The notes under the pieces: model-generated
Database searches by the model: none
What the model saw: the letters and a program-made list of their open reading frames with translations, nothing else
What the model was told of the DNA's origin: nothing
Program-made: the position numbers and the translations under genes
Assembly (NCBI GenBank): GCA_001775095.1
Contig: MFCA01000022.1
Location: 2,162 to 66,161 of the forward strand
Reading direction: 5' to 3'
DNA length: 64,000 nt
Origin: Candidatus Curtissbacteria bacterium RIFOXYA1_FULL_41_14
Lineage (GTDB): Bacteria > Patescibacteriota > Microgenomatia > Curtissbacterales > GWA2-41-24
In this document: piece by piece, positions 4,185-59,763 of the stretch
Layout: each line of letters opens with the position of its first letter
Position numbering within the stretch: position 1 is the stretch's first letter

Positions 4185-5246
4185 TTGGTTAAACTTATGA
4201 GGAAGTCTTTGATTGTTTTAGTTATCCTAGTGGTGGTCTCGAGCGCATTTTATTTTTTAAGGCATCGGTCAAATTCAACCTTTACAAGTCCTAATTCCGA
4301 AACTCTCCAACAGAAATCAACGCCTCTTATCAAATACGCCATAGAAGCATTATCTAAAACCAATTTTAATCCCAGTCAAATTTCTCTGGGCGAACTAGTT
4401 AACAGCACGCCCGATTTTACCTCGCGGATATTTTACTTTTATGTTGATCCTTCGATAAACTCAGGACAAGGTAGAAAGGTTAGCGGGCTTATTAATATTC
4501 CCAACAATGGCACAGATTTACCGGTAATTGTGATGTTTCGCGGTTATGTTGATCGGGAAAAGTACCAAACGGGCGTTGGCACTAATCATGCCGGAGAAGT
4601 TTTTGCAAAAAATGGTTTTATTACTTTGGCCCCTGACTTTTTGGGTTATGGGGAATCTGATATGCCTTCTGAAAACCCTATGGAGGAGCGTTTTCAAACC
4701 CATACGACTGCTCTGACTTTGCTTGCGTCGGTTAAAAATTTGAATGCGGCTTTGTCGGAAGCTGGCGTTGCTGCGAGGGCGGATCCTGACAGAATTGCCA
4801 TCTGGGGGCACAGTAATGGAGGCCAAATTGCCCTAACGATTTTGGAAATTACCGGCAAGAGTTATCCCACAGTTCTCTGGGCGCCGGTTTCTAAACCGTT
4901 TCCGTATTCAATCCTTTACTATACTGATGATTTTGATGACCATGGCAGGATGTTGAGAAAAGTCGTTGCCGATTTTGAAAAGGATTATGACTCAGAGGGT
5001 TATTCACTGGCTAGTTATTTTGAAAAGATAAAAGCGCCTGTGCAGTTGCATCAAGGAGGAGCGGACGAAGCAGTTCCCCTGAAATGGTCAGATCAACTTT
5101 ATGAGCAACTTAAAGAACTAGACAGGGATATCCAATACTTTACCTACACCGGCGAAGACCATAATTTTGCCCAAGGCGCCTGGGGACAGGTTGTCAATCG
5201 GAATATTGTGTTTTATCAGAGGCAATTTGGTAGTAATAAAGAGTAA
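4185..5246 (+). CDS. Alpha/beta-hydrolase (S9 peptidase / dienelactone-hydrolase-like), N-terminally anchored. The start may be the ATG at 4197.
   Basis: Nucleophile elbow GHSNGG, a downstream HQGGADEAVP region and an N-terminal TM. Confidence 0.6.
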   Translation: MVKLMRKSLIVLVILVVVSSAFYFLRHRSNSTFTSPNSETLQQKSTPLIKYAIEALSKTNFNPSQISLGELVNSTPDFTSRIFYFYVDPSINSGQGRKVSGLINIPNNGTDLPVIVMFRGYVDREKYQTGVGTNHAGEVFAKNGFITLAPDFLGYGESDMPSENPMEERFQTHTTALTLLASVKNLNAALSEAGVAARADPDRIAIWGHSNGGQIALTILEITGKSYPTVLWAPVSKPFPYSILYYTDDFDDHGRMLRKVVADFEKDYDSEGYSLASYFEKIKAPVQLHQGGADEAVPLKWSDQLYEQLKELDRDIQYFTYTGEDHNFAQGAWGQVVNRNIVFYQRQFGSNKE

Positions 5247-14127: not shown

Positions 14128-15240
14128 TTAACCTGTCTGCGGGATCTTAATTTTTTCTGCGCTTTCGGTATAGCCCTTTTCTACTAGAACCTTTTTGACT
14201 TCTTCAATAAAAACAGGAAATATTTCTTTTTCCGGAATTGTTCGAAGTAGTTTGCCCTTTTTGAATATTGCGCCTTGTTTCTTACCGCCGCAGATGCCGA
14301 TATCGGCAAAACTGGCTTCTCCAGGGCCGTTAACTACACATCCCATGACGGCCACTTGAATCGGCGCATTTATTTTTGAAAGAATCTTTTCAACCTTTTT
14401 GGCAAGACTAATTAAATCAATTTCTGTTCGGCCGCAAGTCGGACAGGAAATAATCTCTACTCCTTTTTGGCGAAGCTTTAAGGATTTAAGAATGTTCCAG
14501 GCTATTTTTACTTGAGACTGCGGACTATCACTCACGGAAACTCGGATCGTATCGCCAATTCCTTCCGCCAGGATAGAACCAATTCCAACCGCGCTCTTGA
14601 CGGCGCCGGCGATTGATGGTCCCGATTCGGTAATTCCAACATGCAAAGGATAGTCAAAACGCTTTGCAAAGGATAGATAGGCTTGCCTAGTTACAACATT
14701 ATCCGAACCCTTTAAGGAAACTACAATATTTTCGAATTTAAGGTCTTCCAGGATCTTGATATGGCGTGTGGCTGATTCAACCATAACTCGCGCAATGCCG
14801 AATTTGCCATATTTTGCCCAGAGATCCTTTTCCAAAGACCCCATGTTGACACCGATTCTTATGGGTACATTTTTCTCTTTACATACCTTGACGACGGCTT
14901 TGACATTATCGATGCTGCCGATGTTCCCGGGATTAATTCTGACTTTGTCTATTCCTTGTTTTATCACTTCAAGTGCCAGAAGATATTGAAAATGGATATC
15001 AGCAACAAGGGGGATATTAATTTGTTTTTTGATTTTTCCGATCGCTTTTGCCGATTCCATATCCGGGACTGCCACTCTGATAATCTCGCAGTCTATCTTT
15101 TCAAGATCAAGAATTTGCCCGACAGTTGATCTAACATCTGCAGTTTTTGTCTGAGTCATTGACTGGACAAGCACAGGATTACCGGCACCGATTGTGACTT
15201 TGCCAATTTTTACCGGTCTGGTTTTATCGCGCGTATACAT
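14128..15240 (-). CDS. ispG: 4-hydroxy-3-methylbut-2-enyl diphosphate synthase
   Basis: GcpE motifs, including the Cys cluster ISCPTCGRT and the C-terminal 4Fe-4S region. Confidence 0.85.
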   Translation of the reverse strand: MYTRDKTRPVKIGKVTIGAGNPVLVQSMTQTKTADVRSTVGQILDLEKIDCEIIRVAVPDMESAKAIGKIKKQINIPLVADIHFQYLLALEVIKQGIDKVRINPGNIGSIDNVKAVVKVCKEKNVPIRIGVNMGSLEKDLWAKYGKFGIARVMVESATRHIKILEDLKFENIVVSLKGSDNVVTRQAYLSFAKRFDYPLHVGITESGPSIAGAVKSAVGIGSILAEGIGDTIRVSVSDSPQSQVKIAWNILKSLKLRQKGVEIISCPTCGRTEIDLISLAKKVEKILSKINAPIQVAVMGCVVNGPGEASFADIGICGGKKQGAIFKKGKLLRTIPEKEIFPVFIEEVKKVLVEKGYTESAEKIKIPQTG

Positions 15241-16109
15241 TAACTTATTGGTTTTGTGATTATAACTTGTTTGTATTTATTTTTTAATTTTTGTTTTGCA
15301 CTTTGAGCTGCCTGTTCGTTATCAAAGAAGCCTACAACCGAGAGTCCTGCTCCGGCAAGAAGTGATCTTCGTGCACCCGCATTTGTTAAATCATCTTTGA
15401 TTTTTTTTGTAACTGGATAAAATGAAAAAACTAAATCTTCAAAATCATTGTGAAGATTTTCAAAAATTGCCTCTCTATTATTTTCTCGAATTGCGTTTTT
15501 TAAAAGAGAGAGTTTTTGAATATTTTGGCCGATTTTTTTAATGTTTAAGTGATCATACATCCAAGCACTGGAAGGTTTTTTATCCTTTGGTTCGACGATA
15601 AGCATCTTAAAATCGGGCAATCTAAAGGGGAAGGGGATTATTCTGTACTTGTTATCTTCCCCCTCGAATTGAGAAAGTTTGCCATAGTAAGAATAGAAAA
15701 AGTCCTGTCCTAACTTACTCGTTAATTCTTCTAACTTTTTTTCGTTGATCTTTAATTTCCAAAGTTTCAGAAGCCCCTTTACAGTTGCAGCCGCATCAGT
15801 TGATCCACCGCCAAAGCCGGCCTTAATCGGAATTCTCTTTTTCAGTGTTATTTTTGCGCCCAGATTTTGATCAGATGCCATTTTTTTCAGAAGTAATGCA
15901 GCTCTTTCTACCAGGTTGTTGTTTCTCTTAGGAACGTTTTTATCGTCGCAAAAAAAAACAACATGTTCCTTTTGACTTTCAAAAAGAATCTCATCTTTTA
16001 AATCCAATTGGCAATTTAAAAATCTAATAGGGAAAAAACCGTTTTTGGATTTTTTTGGGATGATATGCAAATTTAAATTAAGCTTTGCAAATGCATCTTC
16101 TTTAATCAT
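15240..16109 (-). CDS. ispE: 4-diphosphocytidyl-2-C-methyl-D-erythritol kinase
   Basis: GHMP-kinase motif IPIKAGFGGGSTDAAA. Placement within the isp operon. Confidence 0.75.
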   Translation of the reverse strand: MIKEDAFAKLNLNLHIIPKKSKNGFFPIRFLNCQLDLKDEILFESQKEHVVFFCDDKNVPKRNNNLVERAALLLKKMASDQNLGAKITLKKRIPIKAGFGGGSTDAAATVKGLLKLWKLKINEKKLEELTSKLGQDFFYSYYGKLSQFEGEDNKYRIIPFPFRLPDFKMLIVEPKDKKPSSAWMYDHLNIKKIGQNIQKLSLLKNAIRENNREAIFENLHNDFEDLVFSFYPVTKKIKDDLTNAGARRSLLAGAGLSVVGFFDNEQAAQSAKQKLKNKYKQVIITKPIS

Positions 16110-16596
16110 TCTTTGAAATGAGAACCTCGGAAATTGCTTGGATACCTTTCCCTTGACCGAAAGGGGTTAGATTTTCGCCGGAGGTAAAAGTTATTCCTAC
16201 TTGTTCTGTTTTGATCTTCAAGAGACTGGCGATTTTTGCCTTTATTTTTTTGATAGTCTCAAGATCAAGACGCGGTTTTTTAGCCTCAACACAGATTGAC
16301 ACGTTCTCAACTTTATATTTATTTCCTTCAACTTGTTTGAGAATATGTTCAACGTATTTTGCGCTGTCTATTATTCCGTTTTGACACATTTTATCTGACC
16401 AGGTGGATAGTGAATCTCCACCAACTGCAGAACTTAGAGCATTACATAAACTGTGCAAAATCACGTCGGTGTCTGAATTTCCTGACAGGCCGTTGCTTTG
16501 ATTGACCTTGACTCCACCTAAAATTAGCGGCTTATTTCCGCCGGCCGGCGGATTTAAAAATGCATGAGAATCCTGGCCCAGTCCTATTCTGTACAT
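16102..16596 (-). CDS. ispF: 2-C-methyl-D-erythritol 2,4-cyclodiphosphate synthase
   Basis: MYRIGLGQDSHAF...SDTDVILHSLCNAL matches IspF metal and substrate motifs. Confidence 0.8.
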   Translation of the reverse strand: MYRIGLGQDSHAFLNPPAGGNKPLILGGVKVNQSNGLSGNSDTDVILHSLCNALSSAVGGDSLSTWSDKMCQNGIIDSAKYVEHILKQVEGNKYKVENVSICVEAKKPRLDLETIKKIKAKIASLLKIKTEQVGITFTSGENLTPFGQGKGIQAISEVLISKND

Positions 16597-16680
16597 AATG
16601 CAGTTTGTGTCATTCCGAACTTGTTTCGGAATCTAATAATCTAAGATTAATTAGATCCTGAAATAAATTCAGGATGACAA

Positions 16681-17391
16681 TTAGTGTTTCACTTTTGAAG
16701 TGCGAAGCTTACGCACAATTTGTTCTGCAATCAACAAGTCTTGCGGGAAAGTTATTTTGAAATTCTGAAGTGAACAGGGAACAATTCTCACTTTAACACC
16801 TATTCTTTCAAGAAGTTGTGCGTCGTCCGTTCCGACAAAGTTTTGACCAGCGGCTCTTGCATGCGCCTTCCATAAATTTTTGAATGTTGACACCTGAGGT
16901 GTTTGGGCATACCAACATTTTTCCCGCAAAGGGGTTTCGGCTACGAATTCATCTTTTCCGACGATTTTGACAGTGTCTTTTGCTGGATAAGCTAAAAGAC
17001 TCGCGCCCCATTTTTTGGCAGCTCCGTAGACCTTTCCAATTTCATCTTGAGTAACAAACGGATTAACAGCGTTATGGATTCCTACCAAATCGTTATTTTT
17101 CATTCTGGTTTTCAGAAGTTTCAAAACTTCGAAGGTCGAGTTTTGACGACTGTCTTTGGCATCAACAACATCTTTTACCTTTTTCAATTTATATTTGGCA
17201 AGGATTGTTTTGATTTTTTTTAGGTCTTCTTTTCTTGCTGAGATAACGATATTATCAATGGTCTTACTTTTCTCAAATGGCTTGAGTGTCCAGTAGAGAA
17301 GAGGAAATCTGTTGAGTCCGGCAAAAATTTTATTGAATTTTAAGTTTAACCTTTGCCCTTTACCTCCGGCAACAACAATTAACCAATTCAT
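16681..17391 (-). CDS. ispD: 2-C-methyl-D-erythritol 4-phosphate cytidylyltransferase
   Basis: LIVVAGGKGQRLN nucleotidyltransferase motif. First gene of the operon. Confidence 0.8.
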   Translation of the reverse strand: MNWLIVVAGGKGQRLNLKFNKIFAGLNRFPLLYWTLKPFEKSKTIDNIVISARKEDLKKIKTILAKYKLKKVKDVVDAKDSRQNSTFEVLKLLKTRMKNNDLVGIHNAVNPFVTQDEIGKVYGAAKKWGASLLAYPAKDTVKIVGKDEFVAETPLREKCWYAQTPQVSTFKNLWKAHARAAGQNFVGTDDAQLLERIGVKVRIVPCSLQNFKITFPQDLLIAEQIVRKLRTSKVKH

Positions 17392-19062: not shown

Positions 19063-20148
19063 TTGTTTGGAATGAAAGTGGTACAGATAAGAAAATACGG
19101 AGGGAATGAAGTTTTGGAGGTTAGTGATATACCAAAATCAAAACCCGGTAAAAATCAGGTATTGGTTGTGGTACATGCGGCAAGCGTTAACCCCTTTGAT
19201 TTGGCTGTCCGCTCAGGAGGAATGAGAAGTGTCTCATCCTTACAATTACCGTTTACTCTGGGCGGCGATTTTGCCGGAGTTGTTTTAGAAACTGGTGAAG
19301 ATGTAGTTGATTTTAAAATTGGTGATGAAGTTTACGGCAGCGCAATTGTATTTGGCAGTGGTTCCGGAGCTTTTGCCCAAGAGGTTAGTGTGAACATCGC
19401 AAATTGCGCTTTAAAGCCTAAAGGGGTAAATATGCAAGAGGCAGCCGCGCTGCCGCTTGTCGGATCAAGCGCTGTGCAGGCGCTTGAGGAACATATCAAA
19501 TTAAAAAATAATCAAAAGATATTGATCCATGGCGGCGCAGGCGGAATCGGCCATATTGCGATCCAGCTTGCCAAATCGAAAGGCGCGTACGTTGCCGCAA
19601 CAGTAGGGGACAAAGATAGGGAATTTGTCGAAAGGCTTGGCGCGGATGAGGTGATCGACTATAAACTTCCGAGGGCTAAGAGCCCTCGGTCTTGTTCTTT
19701 AAGTTTATATGAGCGAGCAGATGACTCAAATACTCGGAAGTATGTATTCTCTCGCATTCAGCCGCGGACTGATAGTCCACGGTATTCTGCGAGCGAATAT
19801 AAAAATCAGAAATTCGAAGATATCTTATCAGATTTTGATGCAGTGTATGATACTGTCGGAGGCGATGTCACAGAAAGGTCTTTTAGAGTTTTGAAAAAGG
19901 GCGGAATACTTGTTTCTATGAAAGGACAGCCTGATGAGAAGCTAGCTCAAAAATACCAGGTGTTTGCTATCGGACAATTCACAAAAATTAACGCAGAGCA
20001 CTTGAAGCGGCTTTCAGAACTGGTCGATGCAGACGTTGTCAAAGTTCATGTCGACAAGATTTTTACACTTGATGCGATAAAAGATGCTTTCGAATATCAA
20101 GAGATCGGCCATCCCCAAGGAAAGGTTGTTGTTAAAATTGGAAATTAA
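19063..20148 (+). CDS. Zn-independent MDR-family NADPH:quinone oxidoreductase, carrying a ~45-aa in-frame insertion encoded by a repeat element
   Basis: MKVVQIRKYGGNEVLEV...VLVVVHAASVNPFD and a GxGxxG-type GGAGGIGHIAIQ. The insertion lies between VIDYKL and FEDILSDFDAVYDTVGG. Confidence 0.7.
   Translation: MFGMKVVQIRKYGGNEVLEVSDIPKSKPGKNQVLVVVHAASVNPFDLAVRSGGMRSVSSLQLPFTLGGDFAGVVLETGEDVVDFKIGDEVYGSAIVFGSGSGAFAQEVSVNIANCALKPKGVNMQEAAALPLVGSSAVQALEEHIKLKNNQKILIHGGAGGIGHIAIQLAKSKGAYVAATVGDKDREFVERLGADEVIDYKLPRAKSPRSCSLSLYERADDSNTRKYVFSRIQPRTDSPRYSASEYKNQKFEDILSDFDAVYDTVGGDVTERSFRVLKKGGILVSMKGQPDEKLAQKYQVFAIGQFTKINAEHLKRLSELVDADVVKVHVDKIFTLDAIKDAFEYQEIGHPQGKVVVKIGN
19664..19798. mobile_element. 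~135-bp palindrome-rich repeat lying in-frame inside the quinone-oxidoreductase gene. The reverse-complement copy is at 58243-58378.
   Basis: RC alignment with 58243-58378 is about 85% identical by eye. Includes the CCGAGGGCT-AAG-AGCCCTCGG and CCGYGGACT-RAT-AGTCCACGG hairpins. Confidence 0.65.
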
Positions 20149-54139: not shown

Positions 54140-55465
54140 ATGATTAGGGGCGTGGGCAGTCCGATAATTGAGGTTAAATATCCAATAAAGTTCAGGGAAG
54201 AAGACGCGAAGATTTTAGGCGAACATGTCAGGCTTCGGCATAATGTTAACTTAATCGGCGCAAAAAGAGTCGGAATCGGCGATTTTTTAAATTTCTTTCT
54301 TTATCACAAGGACATCGCCAGAAAATATATCGACAGACACCACAAGCATCTTTTGATCCCGGTGGATTTGAACGATCTTGTTGAGATTAAACTTTTTGCC
54401 TTTTGGACTCTGACTTTTAAAAGAATTGTTGATGCCGTAGGGAGTTTACCGGTCGAGCCAAGCGTCAAAAAACAGATAAACGGGCTATTTTTAACTTCGA
54501 TTCAGGAAAGCGATCTATTTTTAACCGTTGAAAATTTAAGAAAATCATTAATTGAAATCGCCAAGACGGGTATCCTTCCTACAATTTTTTGGTTGCGTTT
54601 TGACAGAATAAGCGAAATTACACCCATTGATTTTTTCGCCAATCTTCAGGGTTTAAGAGAAGCAACCGGTCAGAAATTATGTTTTGTTTTGACAAGTTAT
54701 CGCGAAATTGGAAAGATAACACCTAGGCTTACCGAGAAATTACTGCCTATTTTTATTCACAATTTTTACATCAAGCCGGCAGGGGAAAAAGACGCCAAGG
54801 TCATCTTACATGAGCTAGTTAGGAAATATCATCTGAAAATAAGTGGGAAATTGGCCAAAAAAATAATCGAGGTTAGTGGCGGTCATGCCCAATATCTTTA
54901 TTTAACTCTGATTATTTTGGCGCAGTCGCTCAGAGACCAAAAGGTCGATGAGAAAATCCTTCTGGAATTAATAAGCGGTGACGAACGATTGATTTTACAA
55001 TCGGAGGAAATTTGGGACAGTTTGTTTGACGCGGAAAAAGATGCGATAGGTCTTATTACGGAAGGTAAAAAAGTCGGCGCGGATTTACGATTCAATGCGA
55101 AATATATATGGGAAACAGGCTTAGTTTTGAGAAAGTTTGACAGGCGGCAAATTTTTAGTCCGATTTTTGGCGCATATGTTCGCGAAAACGGGAAAGGTAA
55201 GGTCAACGGAAGTGTCGAATTAACCAAGAAAGAAAATCTTCTATTTTCTCTTCTTTTGGCTAGTCAAAACGAAGTTTGCGAGAGGGAAAAAATCATAGAG
55301 GCAGTTTGGGCAGAATATGAAGATTTGGGAGTTTCCGATTGGACGATTGATAAACTGGTGGCAAGGTTGCGAAATAAACTAAAAGAGCAGGGAAGCGATT
55401 TTTCGGTAATTACAGTTAAGACAAGAGGGTATAAGTTAGTTTCGACTAAGCCAAATCCATCCTGA
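54140..55465 (+). CDS. Transcriptional regulator with an N-terminal degenerate AAA/Arch_ATPase-like domain and a C-terminal OmpR/PhoB-type winged helix
   Basis: C-terminal LTKKENLLFSLLLASQNEVCEREKIIEAVW...SDWTIDKLVARLRNKL...ITVKTRGYKL matches the trans_reg_C pattern. N-terminal GAKRVGIGDF is Walker-A-like but lacks the K-T/S. Confidence 0.5.
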   Translation: MIRGVGSPIIEVKYPIKFREEDAKILGEHVRLRHNVNLIGAKRVGIGDFLNFFLYHKDIARKYIDRHHKHLLIPVDLNDLVEIKLFAFWTLTFKRIVDAVGSLPVEPSVKKQINGLFLTSIQESDLFLTVENLRKSLIEIAKTGILPTIFWLRFDRISEITPIDFFANLQGLREATGQKLCFVLTSYREIGKITPRLTEKLLPIFIHNFYIKPAGEKDAKVILHELVRKYHLKISGKLAKKIIEVSGGHAQYLYLTLIILAQSLRDQKVDEKILLELISGDERLILQSEEIWDSLFDAEKDAIGLITEGKKVGADLRFNAKYIWETGLVLRKFDRRQIFSPIFGAYVRENGKGKVNGSVELTKKENLLFSLLLASQNEVCEREKIIEAVWAEYEDLGVSDWTIDKLVARLRNKLKEQGSDFSVITVKTRGYKLVSTKPNPS

Positions 55466-55874
55466 ATTCCCAGCCCCATTTGGTAAAGCCCAACTTTTCG
55501 TAAAATTTATGAACGTCTTCGCTTGCAAATCGGGAAGTCCCGACAACTTTATAACAGCCTTTTTCTCTGGCTAGTTCTATAAGTTTATTTAAAAGGGCAG
55601 TGCCGACTCCTTTTTTCCGGGAATTTTTATCTACCACTAGCCCCTCCAGGAAAGCATAGGGTTTTCCGTAAGCCGGTATTGGGAAGTAAAGGAGTGTGGC
55701 CGAGCCGATAATTTTATTATTCTGTTTTGCAACTACAATGTCACAGTGGGCCGCATCGATTAAGTCTACGAGGATTTTTTTGGCATCTGCGTGAGGCTCT
55801 TTGACTCTGTAGACTTGGTCTTGAAGGGCCAGAATGCCCTCAAGGTCGTCTTTCGTAGCCAATTTGATTTGCAT
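55446..55874 (-). CDS. GNAT-family N-acetyltransferase
   Basis: R/Q-x-x-G-x-G/A-like SRKKGVGTALL and a KLGF tail. Confidence 0.65.
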   Translation of the reverse strand: MQIKLATKDDLEGILALQDQVYRVKEPHADAKKILVDLIDAAHCDIVVAKQNNKIIGSATLLYFPIPAYGKPYAFLEGLVVDKNSRKKGVGTALLNKLIELAREKGCYKVVGTSRFASEDVHKFYEKLGFTKWGWEFRMDLA

Positions 55875-55932: not shown

Positions 55933-57219
55933 ATGAAGCTTTACGAGTTTGAAGGACATCGGATTCTTGCAAAAGTCGGGATAGAAAGCCCTTTTTTTGT
56001 TGCTTGTTCGAATTTAGACGAGGTAAAACAGGCTCGCAAACGTCTTAAATTTCCAATGGTTGCCAAAGTGCAAGTACTTTCCGGCAGGCGGGGCAAGTCT
56101 GGCGGAGTAAAATTTCTCTCAAACGAGAAACAACTTTTAACCTTTGCAAAAGAAATGTTTGGGAACAAATTTAATGGGGAGGACGTCAGATTTATAAGTT
56201 TTTCTAAAAAAATCGAGATCGAAAAAGAACTCTACCTTTCGATTGCCTACGATACTATCAAAAAAAATCCCTTTTTTCTTTTTTGTGAAGAGGGTGGCGT
56301 TGATATCGAAGAGGTAAAAAAGAGGAGTCCTGAAAAGATTGTTAGAGTAGATATTGATTCGTTGACCGGACCGACGAAAAAGAATCTGGAAGCGCTGTTT
56401 AGGCATGAACTCGTCGATTTTGCAACCCGTCTTTGGGATGCTTTTTGGCGATTTGATTGCCGTATGGTGGAGATTAACCCGTTAGCACTTGTCAGAGAAT
56501 CTGGATCTCACCCCCGGATTGAAGTCAAGACGAAATCTGGGGTGCACCTCGGGGATGGGCATAGTTATGTCGCTATTGATGCCAAAATCATCCTTGACGA
56601 TGCAGGTTTGGCAAGACATCGCGATTTGGATGTTTTGCCAAAGGGCGCAGCGAGTGCGGTACCGACAGAGAGAGAACTGGCAGCAAGAAAGGTTGATGAA
56701 GGTGACTGGCGGGGAACCGCCGGCTCTATTTTTATTGAGCTTGACGGTGACATCGCTGTTTTAGCGTCCGGCGGCGGAGCCAGTCTTTTGACAATGGATG
56801 CGCTGACTTCAGCCGGCGGTAAAGGGGCAAACTATACTGAATATTCTGGTAATCCACCGGCAGAAAAAGTTGAAAAATTAACAAAAATTACTTTGGATAG
56901 AGAAAATCTCAGCGGGTGTTTAGTTTGTGGAGCAGTAGCCAACTTTACAGACATTTATGAAACCTTAAAAGGTTTTACTGAGGGTTTAAGGCAGGTCAGA
57001 CCAAAGCCAAGTTATCCAATCGTCATCCGACGGGGAGGTCCGGGACAGGAGAAGATATACGAAGTAATTGGCAAGATTGCCCAAAAAGAAGATTACGACA
57101 TTCATCTTTTTGGGCCTGAGACACCGATATCAGTTGCGTGTCAAAAGATGGTAGAACTATCTAACGACTATAAAATTCGAAATCCGAAGTACGAAAGTAA
57201 AATCGATTCGTATGATTAG
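55933..57219 (+). CDS. Succinyl-CoA-synthetase-beta-like ATP-grasp subunit (SucC/CcsA/AclB family)
   Basis: Aligns by eye along the full length with SucC (KVQVLSGRRGKSGGVKF, VEINPLAL, LASGGGASLLTMDAL). Confidence 0.7.
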   Translation: MKLYEFEGHRILAKVGIESPFFVACSNLDEVKQARKRLKFPMVAKVQVLSGRRGKSGGVKFLSNEKQLLTFAKEMFGNKFNGEDVRFISFSKKIEIEKELYLSIAYDTIKKNPFFLFCEEGGVDIEEVKKRSPEKIVRVDIDSLTGPTKKNLEALFRHELVDFATRLWDAFWRFDCRMVEINPLALVRESGSHPRIEVKTKSGVHLGDGHSYVAIDAKIILDDAGLARHRDLDVLPKGAASAVPTERELAARKVDEGDWRGTAGSIFIELDGDIAVLASGGGASLLTMDALTSAGGKGANYTEYSGNPPAEKVEKLTKITLDRENLSGCLVCGAVANFTDIYETLKGFTEGLRQVRPKPSYPIVIRRGGPGQEKIYEVIGKIAQKEDYDIHLFGPETPISVACQKMVELSNDYKIRNPKYESKIDSYD

Positions 57220-57285
57220 TATCCATTAGTATATTGGTATCAATGCTAATATACGAATTTATGCTAATTATACAAATATGAGTAT

Positions 57286-58176
57286 ATGGCCATTTTAGTC
57301 AATAGAGATACGCGAGTTTTAATTCAAGGAGTTACAGGTAGATCAGGAACGCAAGTTACGGGCGAGCTATTGGACTATGGTATGAGAGTACTTGCAGGAG
57401 TAACTCCGGGTAAGGGCGGCCAAGAGATAGAGGCGGTGCCGGTTTTTAATTCAATCAAAGAAGCGGTTGAACAAATCGGACCAGTTGACGTCTCGATGGT
57501 TTATGTTCCGCCACTTCTTGCTTATGAAGCAGCGATTGAAGCGATTGAAGCGCAAATTCCCTTAATCCACATTTTCGCCGAGAAAATTCCGATTTTTGAT
57601 ACTTGCCGAATTCTTTCGATGGCCGCTAAAAAAAACGTCCGGGTTTTAGGACCGGCTTCAGTCGGAGCAATTTCTCCAGGCGAAGGTAAGATTGGTTCAA
57701 TCGGCGGACCCAAGCCGGAGGCAGTTTTTTCAAAAGGACCGGTCGGTGTAGTTTCCAGGTCTGGCGGGATGTGTGCCGAGCTTGGTCTTTTAATTTCAAA
57801 TGCCGGTCTTGGGCAGTCAACGGTTGTTGGTATCGGCGGGGATTTGCTTATTGGAATGGACTTATCCGATGTGCTTTTGAATTTTGAGGCAGATGCGCAA
57901 ACAAAAGTTGTGGTGGCTTTTGGTGAAGTTGGGGGTAGTCAAGAGATAGAAGCTAGTAGACTTTTGAAAAATGGCCAGGTAACTAAACCTGTAATTGTTT
58001 TTCTGGCAGGAACTTTTGCTGAAAGTTTGCCAAAAGATACCAGTCTTGGTCATGCCGGAGCTATTGTCGGTCTGGAAACAACAATGAAGGAAAAGATCAA
58101 GACGCTTAAAGATTGCGGTGCAGTTGTTGCCGAAAAATTTGAAGACATACCATTACTAATTAAAAAGTCTCTATAA
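57286..58176 (+). CDS. Succinyl-CoA-synthetase-alpha-like subunit (SucD/CcsB family) with the phosphohistidine loop
   Basis: VLIQGVTGRSGT, GVTPGKGG, SRSGGM and the active His in SLGHAGAIVG. Confidence 0.75.
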   Translation: MAILVNRDTRVLIQGVTGRSGTQVTGELLDYGMRVLAGVTPGKGGQEIEAVPVFNSIKEAVEQIGPVDVSMVYVPPLLAYEAAIEAIEAQIPLIHIFAEKIPIFDTCRILSMAAKKNVRVLGPASVGAISPGEGKIGSIGGPKPEAVFSKGPVGVVSRSGGMCAELGLLISNAGLGQSTVVGIGGDLLIGMDLSDVLLNFEADAQTKVVVAFGEVGGSQEIEASRLLKNGQVTKPVIVFLAGTFAESLPKDTSLGHAGAIVGLETTMKEKIKTLKDCGAVVAEKFEDIPLLIKKSL

Positions 58177-58242
58177 ACATCCTTATAAATATCTGAAAGC
58201 CCTGTTTAGCATTATTGATTTTGATTTTGATGATTATTTATA

Positions 58243-58378
58243 TTCGCTCGCAGAACACCGTGGACTATTAGTCCACGGATGAGGAGCGAGAGAATACATA
58301 CTTCCGAGGAGCGGGATGTTCTGCTCGCTCATGTAAACTTAAAGAACAATACCGAGGGCTCTTAGCCCTCGGAAGTTT
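58243..58378. mobile_element. Intergenic copy of the ~135-bp palindrome-rich repeat that is in-frame in the oxidoreductase gene
   Basis: RC alignment to 19664-19798. Contains perfect hairpins CCGTGGACTA/TTAGTCCACGG and CCGAGGGCTCTTAGCCCTCGG. Confidence 0.65.
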
Positions 58379-58415
58379 ATAATATTTGTATCCGTGAATT
58401 AATTCATAGATACAA

Positions 58416-58853
58416 ATGGCGCAAATTTCTAAAAGACAATTAGGCAGGAAACTTGAGTTGAAAGTTTACGATTCTTTTTGGAGAGTAATAGCAAATATTA
58501 AAAATAGAGAAGAGGTCTCTGACTTTTTTTCCGACTGTTTGACTCGAACCGAGCGGGTTTATTTGGCAAAAAGGATGGCTATCGCGGTACTTTTGTCAAA
58601 AGGTTATGATTACCGATCTATAAGTAATATGTTAAAAGTTTCCACAGGGACGGTGGGAAGAGTGGCAAGTAAAATAGAAGAGAAAGGCTGGAAACTTTTT
58701 GTCAGGAAACTCGAGGGTTTAGAAGATTGGGATAAGTTTTGGCATGATATGGAGAAACTTTTGATGAGGTCTACAGGTGCAGGGAGAAGGATGTTTTTAA
58801 GCGAGGAAGAAATCGAAGGTATCGTCAGGAAGCATAAAAGATTGTCTTCATGA
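58416..58853 (+). CDS. YerC/YecD (TrpR-like) DNA-binding protein
   Basis: LTRTERVYLAKRMAIAVLLSKGYDYRSISNMLKVSTGTVGRV resembles the Trp-repressor-like YerC fold. Confidence 0.55.
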   Translation: MAQISKRQLGRKLELKVYDSFWRVIANIKNREEVSDFFSDCLTRTERVYLAKRMAIAVLLSKGYDYRSISNMLKVSTGTVGRVASKIEEKGWKLFVRKLEGLEDWDKFWHDMEKLLMRSTGAGRRMFLSEEEIEGIVRKHKRLSS

Positions 58854-59022
58854 ATTAATTCATGAAGACAAGGTTCTTTTTGATTTTAAAAATGTAGTTT
58901 TAAGTTTCATGACTGAAAGAGAAGATCTCGATTCTGATTTTGAACTCACCAGGGGAGTTTGCTTTTCAGGGCGAAGATGGGCGAAGCTAGAATGATTAGC
59001 TGAATTTAGGTATACTTAAACC

Positions 59023-59763
59023 GTGATGCCAAAGCCGTACCGGACTTCAATAACCACCCATGCTGATGGTTCACCTCATGTATACGGTTATGATCTGACA
59101 AAGCTTGCCGGGAATACCTCTTTTGCCAAGGCTATCTACCTTATTCTTAAAGGTCAAATGCCGGATAAGGCGAGCGAGAAGATGTTTGAGGCGATGTTAA
59201 CGATCGCTATCGATCACGGTGTTGAACCTCCATCAGTTGTTGCTGCAAGAAACGTTTCTTCGGGCGGTAGTCCAATTCAGGCGGCGGTTGCGGCCGGGGT
59301 ACTGGCGCTTGGGGAATTTCACGGAGGAGCAATTGAGAAGGCGATGGAAAATTTTAAAAAATATCAGGGTGTTGGGGTTAAGATAATGGTTGATGATTTT
59401 AACAAAAATGGCGAGCGTATTTCCGGTTTCGGCCATCGACTATATGCTGACGATCCCAGAACGCAAAGGCTTTTAGAAATTGCCAAGGAACTTGGTTTTT
59501 TCGGTAAATATGTCAAATTTGCTCTTGAAGTTGAAGCAGAAATTTCCAAAGAGTCAAAAAAATTACCTCTTAATATCGACGGATGTTTTTCAGTACTGCT
59601 CTTGGAAATGGGATTCAATCCCAAGGTCGCCAACGGTATTTTTATAATTGCCAGAACACCGGGGTTGGTGGCTCACGTAGTTGAGGAAACCTTGCGTGAG
59701 AAACCGGCAAGGCGGTTAACCGAAAACGATGTGGAATATGACGGACCAAGACCGAGACGGTAA
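59023..59763 (+). CDS. Truncated citrate-synthase-family protein (citryl-CoA-lyase-like, C-terminal catalytic part only)
   Basis: Conserved citrate-synthase catalytic contexts HGGA, GFGHRLY...DPR and IARTPGLVAHVVEE. It lacks the ~150-aa N-terminal region of full citrate synthases. Confidence 0.65.
   Translation: MMPKPYRTSITTHADGSPHVYGYDLTKLAGNTSFAKAIYLILKGQMPDKASEKMFEAMLTIAIDHGVEPPSVVAARNVSSGGSPIQAAVAAGVLALGEFHGGAIEKAMENFKKYQGVGVKIMVDDFNKNGERISGFGHRLYADDPRTQRLLEIAKELGFFGKYVKFALEVEAEISKESKKLPLNIDGCFSVLLLEMGFNPKVANGIFIIARTPGLVAHVVEETLREKPARRLTENDVEYDGPRPRR

Follow-up and report, generated by a model that had tools for sequence, protein, structure and literature searches.

A predicted citryl-CoA synthetase and citryl-CoA lyase operon in a Candidatus Curtissbacteria genome and its possible link to amino-sugar synthesis

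The citrate-cleaving step of the reductive tricarboxylic acid (rTCA) cycle of Hydrogenobacter is reportedly carried out by a citryl-CoA synthetase (CCS) together with a citryl-CoA lyase (CCL), a scheme attributed to Aoshima in 2004. Here we consider a gene cluster in a 64-kb stretch of DNA from Candidatus Curtissbacteria bacterium RIFOXYA1_FULL_41_14 (contig MFCA01000022.1; this whole stretch is hereafter the window), in which a SucC-like gene, a SucD-like gene and a short citrate-synthase-like gene very probably encode a citryl-CoA synthetase (CcsAB) and a separate citryl-CoA lyase (Ccl), as judged from comparison of the sequences. Comparable findings have been made in organisms with reduced genomes. 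The organism is a groundwater bacterium of the Microgenomates with a tiny genome. CCS/CCL-like genes are the only genes related to the tricarboxylic acid (TCA) cycle noted in Nanohaloarchaea (Vavourakis et al. 2016, PMC4766312), sequences of the Candidate Phyla Radiation (CPR) and DPANN that are annotated as succinyl-CoA synthetase or citrate synthase fall in CCS/CCL clades (Sokolskyi and DasSarma 2022, 10.1101/2022.10.25.513756), and an ATP-citrate lyase (ACL) cleaving external citrate, rare in the CPR, is predicted in a Gracilibacterium (Sieber et al. 2019, PMC6851277). The kind of enzyme, characterised in H. thermophilus with solved structures of both CCS and CCL, and its presence in reduced genomes are already known. 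The initial annotation of the window regarded the trio as notable in a reduced genome; the genes do stand isolated from TCA genes within the window, but the point had already been made in the literature for other reduced-genome lineages.

Identity of the ccsA, ccsB and ccl products

The genes of the cluster are as follows.

55933 to 57219, plus strand: ccsA-like gene, predicted CCS large (beta) subunit, 428 aa (Pfam, PDB match, motifs, neighbor-joining split)
57286 to 58176, plus strand: ccsB-like gene, predicted CCS small (alpha) subunit, 296 aa (CoA_binding and Ligase_CoA domains, His256 loop)
59023 to 59763, plus strand: ccl gene, predicted citryl-CoA lyase, 246 aa, GTG start (NCBIfam NF004869 cut-off passed)

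The ccsB start lies 66 nt past ccsA. The initial annotation had listed these three open reading frames (ORFs) together with a fourth, TrpR-like one; each was recovered at its coordinates (428, 296, 145 and 246 aa, all on the plus strand), Pfam agrees with the SucC-like, SucD-like, TrpR-like and citrate-synthase-like identities then given to the four proteins, and the phospho-histidine loop GHAGA noted in the SucD-like protein is present, its histidine being His256.

The large subunit matches the ATP-grasp_2 domain (PF08442, E 1e-41) and the Citrate_bind domain (PF16114, 86 bits with a cut-off of 26.8), and its C-terminal domain is as such of the citrate-binding type and not the succinate-binding Ligase_CoA type of SucC. 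Among proteins of the PDB, it ranks the large CCS subunit of Hydrogenobacter thermophilus first (6hxq_B, 179 bits), followed by Chlorobium AclB (133 bits), while no SucC scores above 115 bits, and it is 36% identical to the characterised Hydrogenobacter CcsA; H. thermophilus CcsA itself, as a PDB query, scores 163 bits to a SucC. The small subunit carries the CoA_binding (PF02629) and Ligase_CoA (PF00549) domains. Both subunits miss the cut-offs of the NCBIfam equivalog models for succinyl-CoA synthetase, the large subunit scoring 188.7 to SucC (cut-off 370) and the small subunit 278.5 to SucD (cut-off 336). The short protein has as its top PDB match the H. thermophilus CCL (6hxp_A, E 3e-68, 233 bits, full-length, 50% identity), with the best citrate synthase at 81 bits; with 272 bits it exceeds the cut-off of 212 set for NF004869, the citryl-CoA lyase model of NCBIfam, and it misses all citrate-synthase models by a wide interval (105 bits for the best, cut-off 421).

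The residues that discriminate between these families were compared across the sampled loci. In the large subunit, the motifs GGGAS, SGNPP, ANFT and RRGGP (G280-G282/S284, G306/P308, N337-F338-T339 and R366-R367-G-G-P370) are all in the CCS/ACL state, and the corresponding GGGAS, SG(N/D)PP, AN(F/N)T and RRxGP are found in every CCS or ACL beta sequence sampled and in 0 of 17 SucC sequences. All 17 of the latter carry NGAGLA, GGGA/S, GGI-TRCD and RLxGTN, of which NGAGLA, GGI-TRCD and RLxGTN are missing from the window protein. The small subunit reads SRSGGM, the CCS/ACL state S(R/K)SGG(M/L) that is present in every CCS/ACL sequence sampled and in none of the 17 SucCD, where SucD has SRSGTLTYE. 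When aligned with H. thermophilus CCL and citrate synthases, Ccl retains His100, His138, Asp186 and Arg211, and its NxDG and PGL motifs are of the CCL/ACL type, citrate synthases having NVDF/W and VGW at these places. Of the catalytic contexts proposed in the initial annotation, neither DPR nor IARTPGLVAH holds the catalytic aspartate, which is Asp186 within LNIDG; ARTPGL holds the conserved Arg211. It had likewise been proposed that some 150 N-terminal residues are lacking. The best stretch of the Pfam Citrate_synt match covers only profile positions 162-352 of 357, so that a region equivalent to about the first 140-160 residues of citrate synthases, enzymes of ~370-430 aa, is indeed absent. 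The protein is no plain N-terminal truncation, since a weak alignment joins its initial ~45 residues to positions 16-66 of citrate synthase.

Neighbor-joining (NJ) trees were constructed with a simple distance correction and 100 bootstraps from sequences of 80 named genome loci, E. coli SucCD, GltA and PrpC, and partial references rebuilt from PDB alignments. The loci (designated by L numbers) came from one profile scan of genome contigs with a CcsA alignment, so that the counts given throughout are among the matches listed; Curtissbacteria loci, none of which stood among those matches, were added by a separate search for contigs encoding homologues, and ORFs in the comparison loci were called mechanically. 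The SucC set splits from the CCS and ACL beta subunits in 100 of 100 bootstraps, and the same value separates the SucD set from the CcsA-adjacent alpha subunits, Aquificae CcsB and ACL alpha, and the citrate synthases from CCL and ACL. The phylogeny with SucCD, CCS and ACL references that the initial annotation had called for consequently places the beta and alpha subunits outside true SucCD, and its central proposal, a two-step citrate-cleaving trio rather than a succinyl-CoA synthetase, is supported by domains, cut-offs, motifs and trees alike.

The possibility of a pseudogene fragment, also raised at the outset for the short gene, is ruled out by the passed CCL cut-off, the full-length 50% identity, the retained catalytic residues and a dN/dS of 0.11. 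In pairwise comparisons with orthologues, ccl gave dN/dS values of 0.11 and 0.08, ccsB one of 0.13, and the neighboring GNAT acetyltransferase gene described below one of 0.07; homologues at E<=1e-10 numbered 1087 for the short protein and 3358 for the beta subunit; because of these many homologues and the low dN/dS, the ORFs of the cluster are not chance frames, the genes are not pseudogenes, and ccl is under purifying selection. Of the more than 1000 homologues of the short protein, those listed as closest keep to a length of 244-249 aa. The ccl product is 100% identical to a protein listed by NCBI as 'Citrate synthase' for Candidatus Curtissbacteria bacterium GW2011_GWA1_40_47; relatives of the beta subunit bear the public name 'Succinyl-CoA synthetase, beta subunit', and the PGAP names of relatives of the short protein already include 'citryl-CoA lyase'.

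Two observations on the CCS subunits may be recorded here. In the CcsA-like proteins, three positions carry insertions that differ between lineages and reach ~60 residues (homologues P0164, P0194, P0236 and P0196; an insertion region lies at residues ~187-212 of the window protein), and the C-terminal tails vary as well, for a total of 380-466 aa around a conserved catalytic core. In one Curtissbacteria contig (L095, 5672-6762), ccsB is split into two ORFs, which may result from a frameshift, from misassembly or from true disruption of the gene.

The three genes are collinear in the order ccsA-ccsB-ccl in all 25 CPR/DPANN-type loci that reach past ccsB, the added Curtissbacteria included, and on this comparison constitute a conserved, predicted operon. 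These loci span Curtiss-, Davies-, Woyke-, Magasanik- and Taylorbacteria, Paceibacterota, Saccharibacteria, a Nanohaloarchaeon, a metagenome-assembled genome (MAG) of Anaerolineae, and MAGs titled 'Gammaproteobacteria'. No ccl was seen near ccsA in four Aquificaceae loci, and AclA of Chlorobiaceae and Nitrospiraceae is a fusion of 606-610 aa. A fused ACL can be set aside for the window, where ccsB (296 aa) and ccl (246 aa) each have an ORF of their own.

A proteobacterial distribution, as the 'Gammaproteobacteria' titles would imply, was considered and rejected, given that GlmS in these contigs is 64-75% identical to that of Magasanikbacteria and 43-46% to that of E. coli, and that the gene order is the same. 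The title 'uncultured Gammaproteobacteria bacterium' looks wrong for L010, L011, L016 and L017, whose content is that of Magasanikbacteria-like CPR, and L007, L008, L014, L015, L021, L027 and L028 are probably mislabelled likewise. In the Anaerolineae MAG, a second and very divergent SucC/SucD-like pair directly follows ccl (L018, 10975-13087); it occupies a long branch next to the CCS/ACL clade, has the motifs of neither SucC nor CCS, and may be a different acid-CoA ligase.

Proposed reaction and possible role

By homology, CcsA would use the ATP in its ATP-grasp domain to phosphorylate His256 of CcsB, the phosphoryl group would be transferred to citrate that CcsA binds through its citrate-binding domain (N337, T339, R367 and G306), and CcsB-bound CoA would displace phosphate to yield citryl-CoA, which Ccl would split by retro-Claisen cleavage (His100, His138, Asp186) into acetyl-CoA and oxaloacetate. 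That the system runs in this cleavage direction is probable, in our estimation, and an unfused two-step form of ACL which cleaves citrate and supplies the envelope is, taken as a whole, likely to be the best explanation of the locus. For this member of the CPR, which depends on a host and shows no TCA cycle in the window, the citrate would be scavenged, and the acetyl-CoA may serve mainly for the N-acetylation of glucosamine phosphate on the way to UDP-N-acetylglucosamine (UDP-GlcNAc) and the cell envelope, a step that could be performed here by a divergent GNA1-like GNAT (55446-55874) and, outside this lineage, by a GlmU acetyltransferase domain encoded on its own. This link of CCS/CCL to UDP-GlcNAc synthesis is held tentatively, at slightly less than even chances.

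The acetyltransferase gene in question lies immediately upstream of the cluster.

55446 to 55874, minus strand: GNAT acetyltransferase gene, GNA1-like, 142 aa (Pfam Acetyltransf_1, E 4e-20)

It is divergent from ccsA across a 58-nt spacer. Its second-best PDB match is the Trypanosoma brucei glucosamine-6-phosphate N-acetyltransferase (3fb3/3i3g, E 2e-12; 3I3G is so identified in PMC4964394), with GCYKV and FYEKLGF common to both; other GNA1s match weakly (1e-4 to 1e-2), and the protein passes no curated model. It is regarded as a candidate amino-sugar N-acetyltransferase (GNA1, EC 2.3.1.4) drawing on acetyl-CoA, a candidate assignment that gains support from the context of its relatives, which includes GlmS, the GlmU N-terminal half (GlmU-N) and the UDP-GlcNAc-binding protein YvcK.

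The genomic association is extensive. Homologues of the GNAT stand beside ccsA in 13 further loci, of Curtiss-, Magasanik- and Saccharibacteria, and, in addition to these 13, in Gottesmanbacteria and in another MAG of the CPR. Of the 29 CPR-type loci, 19 have an acetyltransferase that is either of this GNAT family or of LbH/GlmU type, within 150 nt of the operon in 16 of them and in at least 5 different arrangements, while the 56 control loci (SucCD, ACL, Aquificae) gave 2 weak distant matches and none adjacent (Fisher p ~1e-9, for loci that are not phylogenetically independent). Eight Magasanikbacteria-type loci share one co-directional string with gaps of a few nt, namely TrmB, HAD, GlmU-N, GlmS, HAD, YvcK, GNAT, ccsA, ccsB and ccl. 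The portion comprising GlmU-N, GlmS, YvcK, GNAT and ccsABccl recurs in L099, and a Saccharibacteria locus (L024) has the order GlmS, ccsA, ccsB, ccl, GNAT, HAD, YvcK. Four other Curtissbacteria conserve YebC, GNAT (minus strand), ccsA, ccsB, ccl, RuvC and DUF5656, as does a Gottesmanbacterium. The exception is L094, a Curtissbacteria locus without the GNAT, which has in its place a stand-alone GlmU acetyltransferase LbH domain (4186-4797, E 2e-69 to GlmU positions 247-435) whose stop codon overlaps the ccsA start. An archaeal-type bifunctional GlmU lies 3 nt upstream of ccsA in a Daviesbacteria locus (L009), and in a Woykebacteria locus (L013) an oxidoreductase, an LbH acetyltransferase and a DegT aminotransferase directly follow ccl. 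As a related observation, only the N-terminal uridylyltransferase half of GlmU (~250 aa, GlmU positions 2-237) was seen at L019 1927-2694 and L099 41-799, with equivalents in L010-L023.

A second potential source of acetyl-CoA is found in the same clusters. Threonine dehydrogenase (Tdh) and glycine C-acetyltransferase (Kbl) convert threonine to glycine and acetyl-CoA. Their genes occur together at L017 1910-4349, L023 1391-3585, L099 2676-5045 and L100 2223-4862, with a Tdh-like gene alone at L015 29-1060; in L100 the pair stands in place of CCS/CCL. The Kbl passes its NCBIfam equivalog (585, cut-off 460), and for the dehydrogenase the highest-ranking model is threonine 3-dehydrogenase, whose cut-off it misses. 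As a test of the linkage, three GNAT homologues were picked without knowledge of their neighbors. The first (Gottesmanbacteria) proved to be divergent from ccsABccl, the second lies in a GlmU-N, GlmS, Tdh, Kbl, YvcK, GNAT, ccsA, ccsB, ccl cluster, and the third belongs to an amino-sugar cluster with GlmS, YvcK, Tdh-Kbl and an NTP-transferase, without CCS/CCL.

It is because two producers of acetyl-CoA appear to have been recruited to the same acetyl-CoA-consuming amino-sugar cluster that we favor the cleavage direction and a supply to UDP-GlcNAc. Synthesis of UDP-GlcNAc in these CPR lineages appears to proceed with split or replaced GlmU modules. On this basis, the operon of the CPR (and possibly Nanohaloarchaea) may be no TCA relic, and could instead be the acetyl-CoA generator of a dedicated UDP-GlcNAc and cell-envelope module, a suggestion for which we would put the chances a little below one half. 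In many of these genomes GlmU consists of its uridylyltransferase half only; within that suggestion, the GNAT or a split-off domain would replace the missing acetyltransferase half, and Tdh and Kbl would be an alternative or additional source of acetyl-CoA.

A number of observations speak against the account given thus far, both in its enzymology and in its physiology. The top PDB score of the small subunit is to the archaeal SucD 2yv2 (253 bits), with CcsB (6hxq_A) at 182; by motif and tree, the subunit is nonetheless on the CCS/ACL side despite this pairwise score. The NJ trees use a simple distance and taxa from among the matches listed, and the enzymatic roles of the CPR homologues are predicted from their sequences. 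The top PDB match of the GNAT is an uncharacterised acetyltransferase, its homologues carry only generic 'GNAT family' names in public sources, and in the window it is divergent from, and not co-transcribed with, the operon. An acetyltransferase near the operon was not seen in 10 of the 29 CPR-type loci. No GlmS, GlmU, citrate transporter or oxaloacetate-consuming enzyme is present in the 64-kb window, and as the divergent GNAT is the only such gene nearby, with GlmS and GlmU outside the 64 kb, the UDP-GlcNAc inference is weaker for this window. Last, a TrpR-like insertion with a terminator-like hairpin, described in the next section, separates ccl from ccsAB, and a promoter scan gave no convincing ccl promoter downstream of the TrpR-like gene, promoter-like sites being about as frequent as expected from shuffled sequence.

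The same enzymes could conceivably act in reverse, as an ATP-conserving 'ATP-citrate synthase' that forms citrate, ATP and CoA from acetyl-CoA, oxaloacetate, ADP and Pi. The ACL of Desulfobacter postgatei is said to have been described by Moller et al. in 1987 as running in this direction; it is established that the overall ACL reaction lies near equilibrium, no normal citrate synthase is in view in the window, and CPR bacteria are fermenters short of ATP-yielding steps. The operon is, however, tied to consumers of acetyl-CoA (GNAT, GlmU domain) and to another producer (Tdh-Kbl), which fits supply and not disposal, and the window shows no gene that would provide oxaloacetate or acetyl-CoA. As such, we consider the reverse direction unlikely.

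A CCS/CCL-family system that acts on some other hydroxy-acid (methylcitrate, citramalate or malate) is similarly improbable. The CPR/DPANN homologues are assigned from sequence, the identities to the Hydrogenobacter enzymes are 36% (CcsA) and 50% (Ccl), and the CPR clade lies apart from that of the Aquificae, all of which leaves some room for a change of substrate. Set against this are the equivalents of N346, T348, R379 and G309 of human ACL (ACLY), which reportedly line the citrate site in ACLY (Sun et al. 2010). The residues matching these positions are identical in the window CcsA and across its clade. In human numbering, N346-F347-T348 and R378-R379-G380-G381-P382 match the ANFT and RRGGP motifs (numbering from PMC9504748). 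Ccl furthermore keeps the catalytic and oxaloacetate-binding residues common to citrate synthase and ACL.

An ordinary succinyl-CoA synthetase accompanied by a decayed citrate-synthase fragment of a lost TCA cycle, as the 2015 GenBank annotation would have it, draws on the public names 'Citrate synthase' and 'Succinyl-CoA synthetase, beta subunit' and on the SucD score of the alpha subunit, but is contradicted by the missed SucC, SucD and citrate-synthase cut-offs and the passed CCL one, the missing SucC motifs, the 100% bootstrap values, the constant length (244-249 aa) of the closest listed homologues and a dN/dS of ~0.1; we reject it as highly improbable. A part in an rTCA cycle for autotrophic CO2 fixation, as in Aquificae, is the most remote of these proposals. 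CCS/CCL is the citrate-cleaving step of that cycle in Hydrogenobacter (as summarised in 10.1101/2022.10.25.513756), but the 64 kb hold no other TCA or rTCA gene, CPR genomes of ~1 Mb lack these pathways according to the literature, and the conserved neighbors are cell-envelope sugar genes and not TCA genes.

The proposed citrate-cleaving role has consequences beyond this genome. The CPR constitutes a large share of bacterial diversity. Recognition of these proteins would correct a widespread misannotation, from 'succinyl-CoA synthetase' and 'citrate synthase' to a citrate-cleaving system, and suggests that citrate is among the metabolites scavenged. The recurrent presence of GlmS, GlmU fragments, GNAT, YvcK and Tdh-Kbl nearby offers a testable purpose, namely the provision of acetyl-CoA for peptidoglycan precursors, and suggests in addition that UDP-GlcNAc is built by a non-canonical, split set of enzymes. 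If true, wall-sugar acetylation would be the main use of acetyl-CoA in bacteria without fatty-acid synthesis or a TCA cycle, and host-derived citrate would be a key dependency.

The insertion between ccsB and ccl, and other features of the window

Four further features lie between ccsB and ccl.

58237 to 58381, no strand: structured repeat element, ~145 nt, in the ccsB-trpR spacer (folding and second copy)
58386 to 58415, no strand: 30-nt palindrome, copy 1, core TGAATTAATTCA, candidate operator or cassette end (ends at the TrpR-like ATG)
58416 to 58853, plus strand: TrpR/YerC-like helix-turn-helix gene, 145 aa (Pfam Trp_repressor, E 3e-15)
58842 to 58871, no strand: 30-nt palindrome, copy 2, terminator-like (spans the TrpR-like stop codon, T-run after)

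The 846-nt gap between ccsB and ccl is read as an insertion because the gap is 17-66 nt in other Curtissbacteria (n=4) and in a Gottesmanbacterium. The TrpR-like gene is present in the closest relative (L096) and missing at the ccsB-ccl position in four other Curtissbacteria, in Gottesmanbacteria and in all other CPR-type operons examined; as it occurs only in the two closest genomes, an original component of the operon can be discounted, and from the gene orders compared it is a later, lineage-specific insertion. Its product falls marginally short of the NCBIfam YerC/YecD model (41.7 bits, cut-off 42.2). The two palindrome copies are 80% identical and exactly bracket the TrpR-like ORF, their core TGAATTAATTCA has only these two exact occurrences in the 64 kb, and the 3' copy is kept in L096. 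The second copy with its T-run looks like a terminator. The two palindromes could also mark where a cassette was inserted, or could act as paired operators through which the gene regulates itself or ccl.

The ~145-nt repeat belongs to the inserted DNA and has a predicted fold of -63.7 kcal/mol (z = -6.8). An Rfam search of the ccsB-ccl spacer returned nothing meaningful. A second copy, 88% identical and in reverse orientation, lies at 19660-19803, and a partial copy at L094 11473-11535. The former is located inside a Zn-alcohol-dehydrogenase ORF (19063-20148), the frame of which stays open while its Pfam match is broken at residues ~202-244, an arrangement reminiscent of the palindromic elements of Rickettsia, which insert in frame into genes.

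Gene content in the 64 kb was judged from the Pfam labels on all called genes, and by that measure the statement of the initial annotation that no other TCA genes are in view holds for the window. The minus strand carries a run of methylerythritol phosphate (MEP) pathway genes (IspG/GcpE, an IspE-like GHMP kinase, IspF/YgbB and IspD; 14128-17391), by which the reduced genome retains the making of isoprenoid precursors from pyruvate and glyceraldehyde-3-phosphate, a route without need of acetyl-CoA.

Comparison with known citrate-cleaving and related systems

A limited literature search gave no earlier account of a conserved ccsA-ccsB-ccl operon, no earlier link of it to GNAT, GlmU-fragment, GlmS, YvcK or Tdh-Kbl genes, and no earlier report that the 'ANFTD' of this clade resembles ACL over the 'ANNTR' of Aquificae.

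With SucCD and citrate synthase, the cluster shares homologous folds (an ATP-grasp beta subunit, a CoA-binding alpha subunit with a GHAGA loop, and a citrate-synthase catalytic domain), and differs in the C-terminal domain of the beta subunit, in all the discriminating motifs, and in the ~140-160 residues that the short protein lacks. The systems of other reduced genomes (Nanohaloarchaea, CPR, Gracilibacterium) are alike in that an isolated citrate-cleaving enzyme, in a symbiont-like genome without a TCA cycle, is proposed to convert acquired citrate to acetyl-CoA and oxaloacetate. The Nanohaloarchaea locus L029 has the same ccsA-ccsB-ccl order. The Gracilibacterium ACL, unlike the trio described here, was reported as a two-subunit (fused) enzyme of archaeal affinity (PMC6851277).

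The H. thermophilus CcsAB and Ccl (6HXQ, 6HXP) resemble the predicted products in being three separate polypeptides of similar sizes with the same domains, the phospho-histidine loop and the Ccl catalytic residues. There are, however, several differences: the genes form one operon here, whereas ccl is not near ccsA in the four Aquificaceae loci; the beta subunit reads 'ANFTD' as in ACL and not 'ANNTR' as in Aquificae CCS; the alpha subunit has 296 aa where the solved CcsB chain has 353; and the organism is a non-autotrophic member of the CPR with no rTCA context, unlike Hydrogenobacter. The CPR/DPANN sequences, moreover, do not group with Aquificae in the NJ trees.

Finally, the AclBA of Chlorobium and Nitrospira (6HXJ) is predicted to share the same chemistry, and has in common with the window protein the beta-subunit motifs GGGAS, SG(N/D)PP, ANFTD and RRGGP; its alpha subunit is fused to the CCL module, whereas the two are separate genes here, and the first Ccl catalytic histidine (HGGA) is a phenylalanine in the ACL sequences sampled. 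The ACL subunits of Chlorobiaceae and Nitrospiraceae nest among CPR-type CCS/CCL in the NJ trees, with weak support and long branches, which hints that, of the two, an operon of the type seen here and not the Aquificae system is the nearer to the ACL ancestor. If ccsB and ccl were fused, that one event would turn the operon into an AclBA-type enzyme, and the locus may bear on the origin of ACL because CPR/DPANN-type CCS combines ACL motifs missing from Aquificae CCS with a gene order that is ready for such a fusion.

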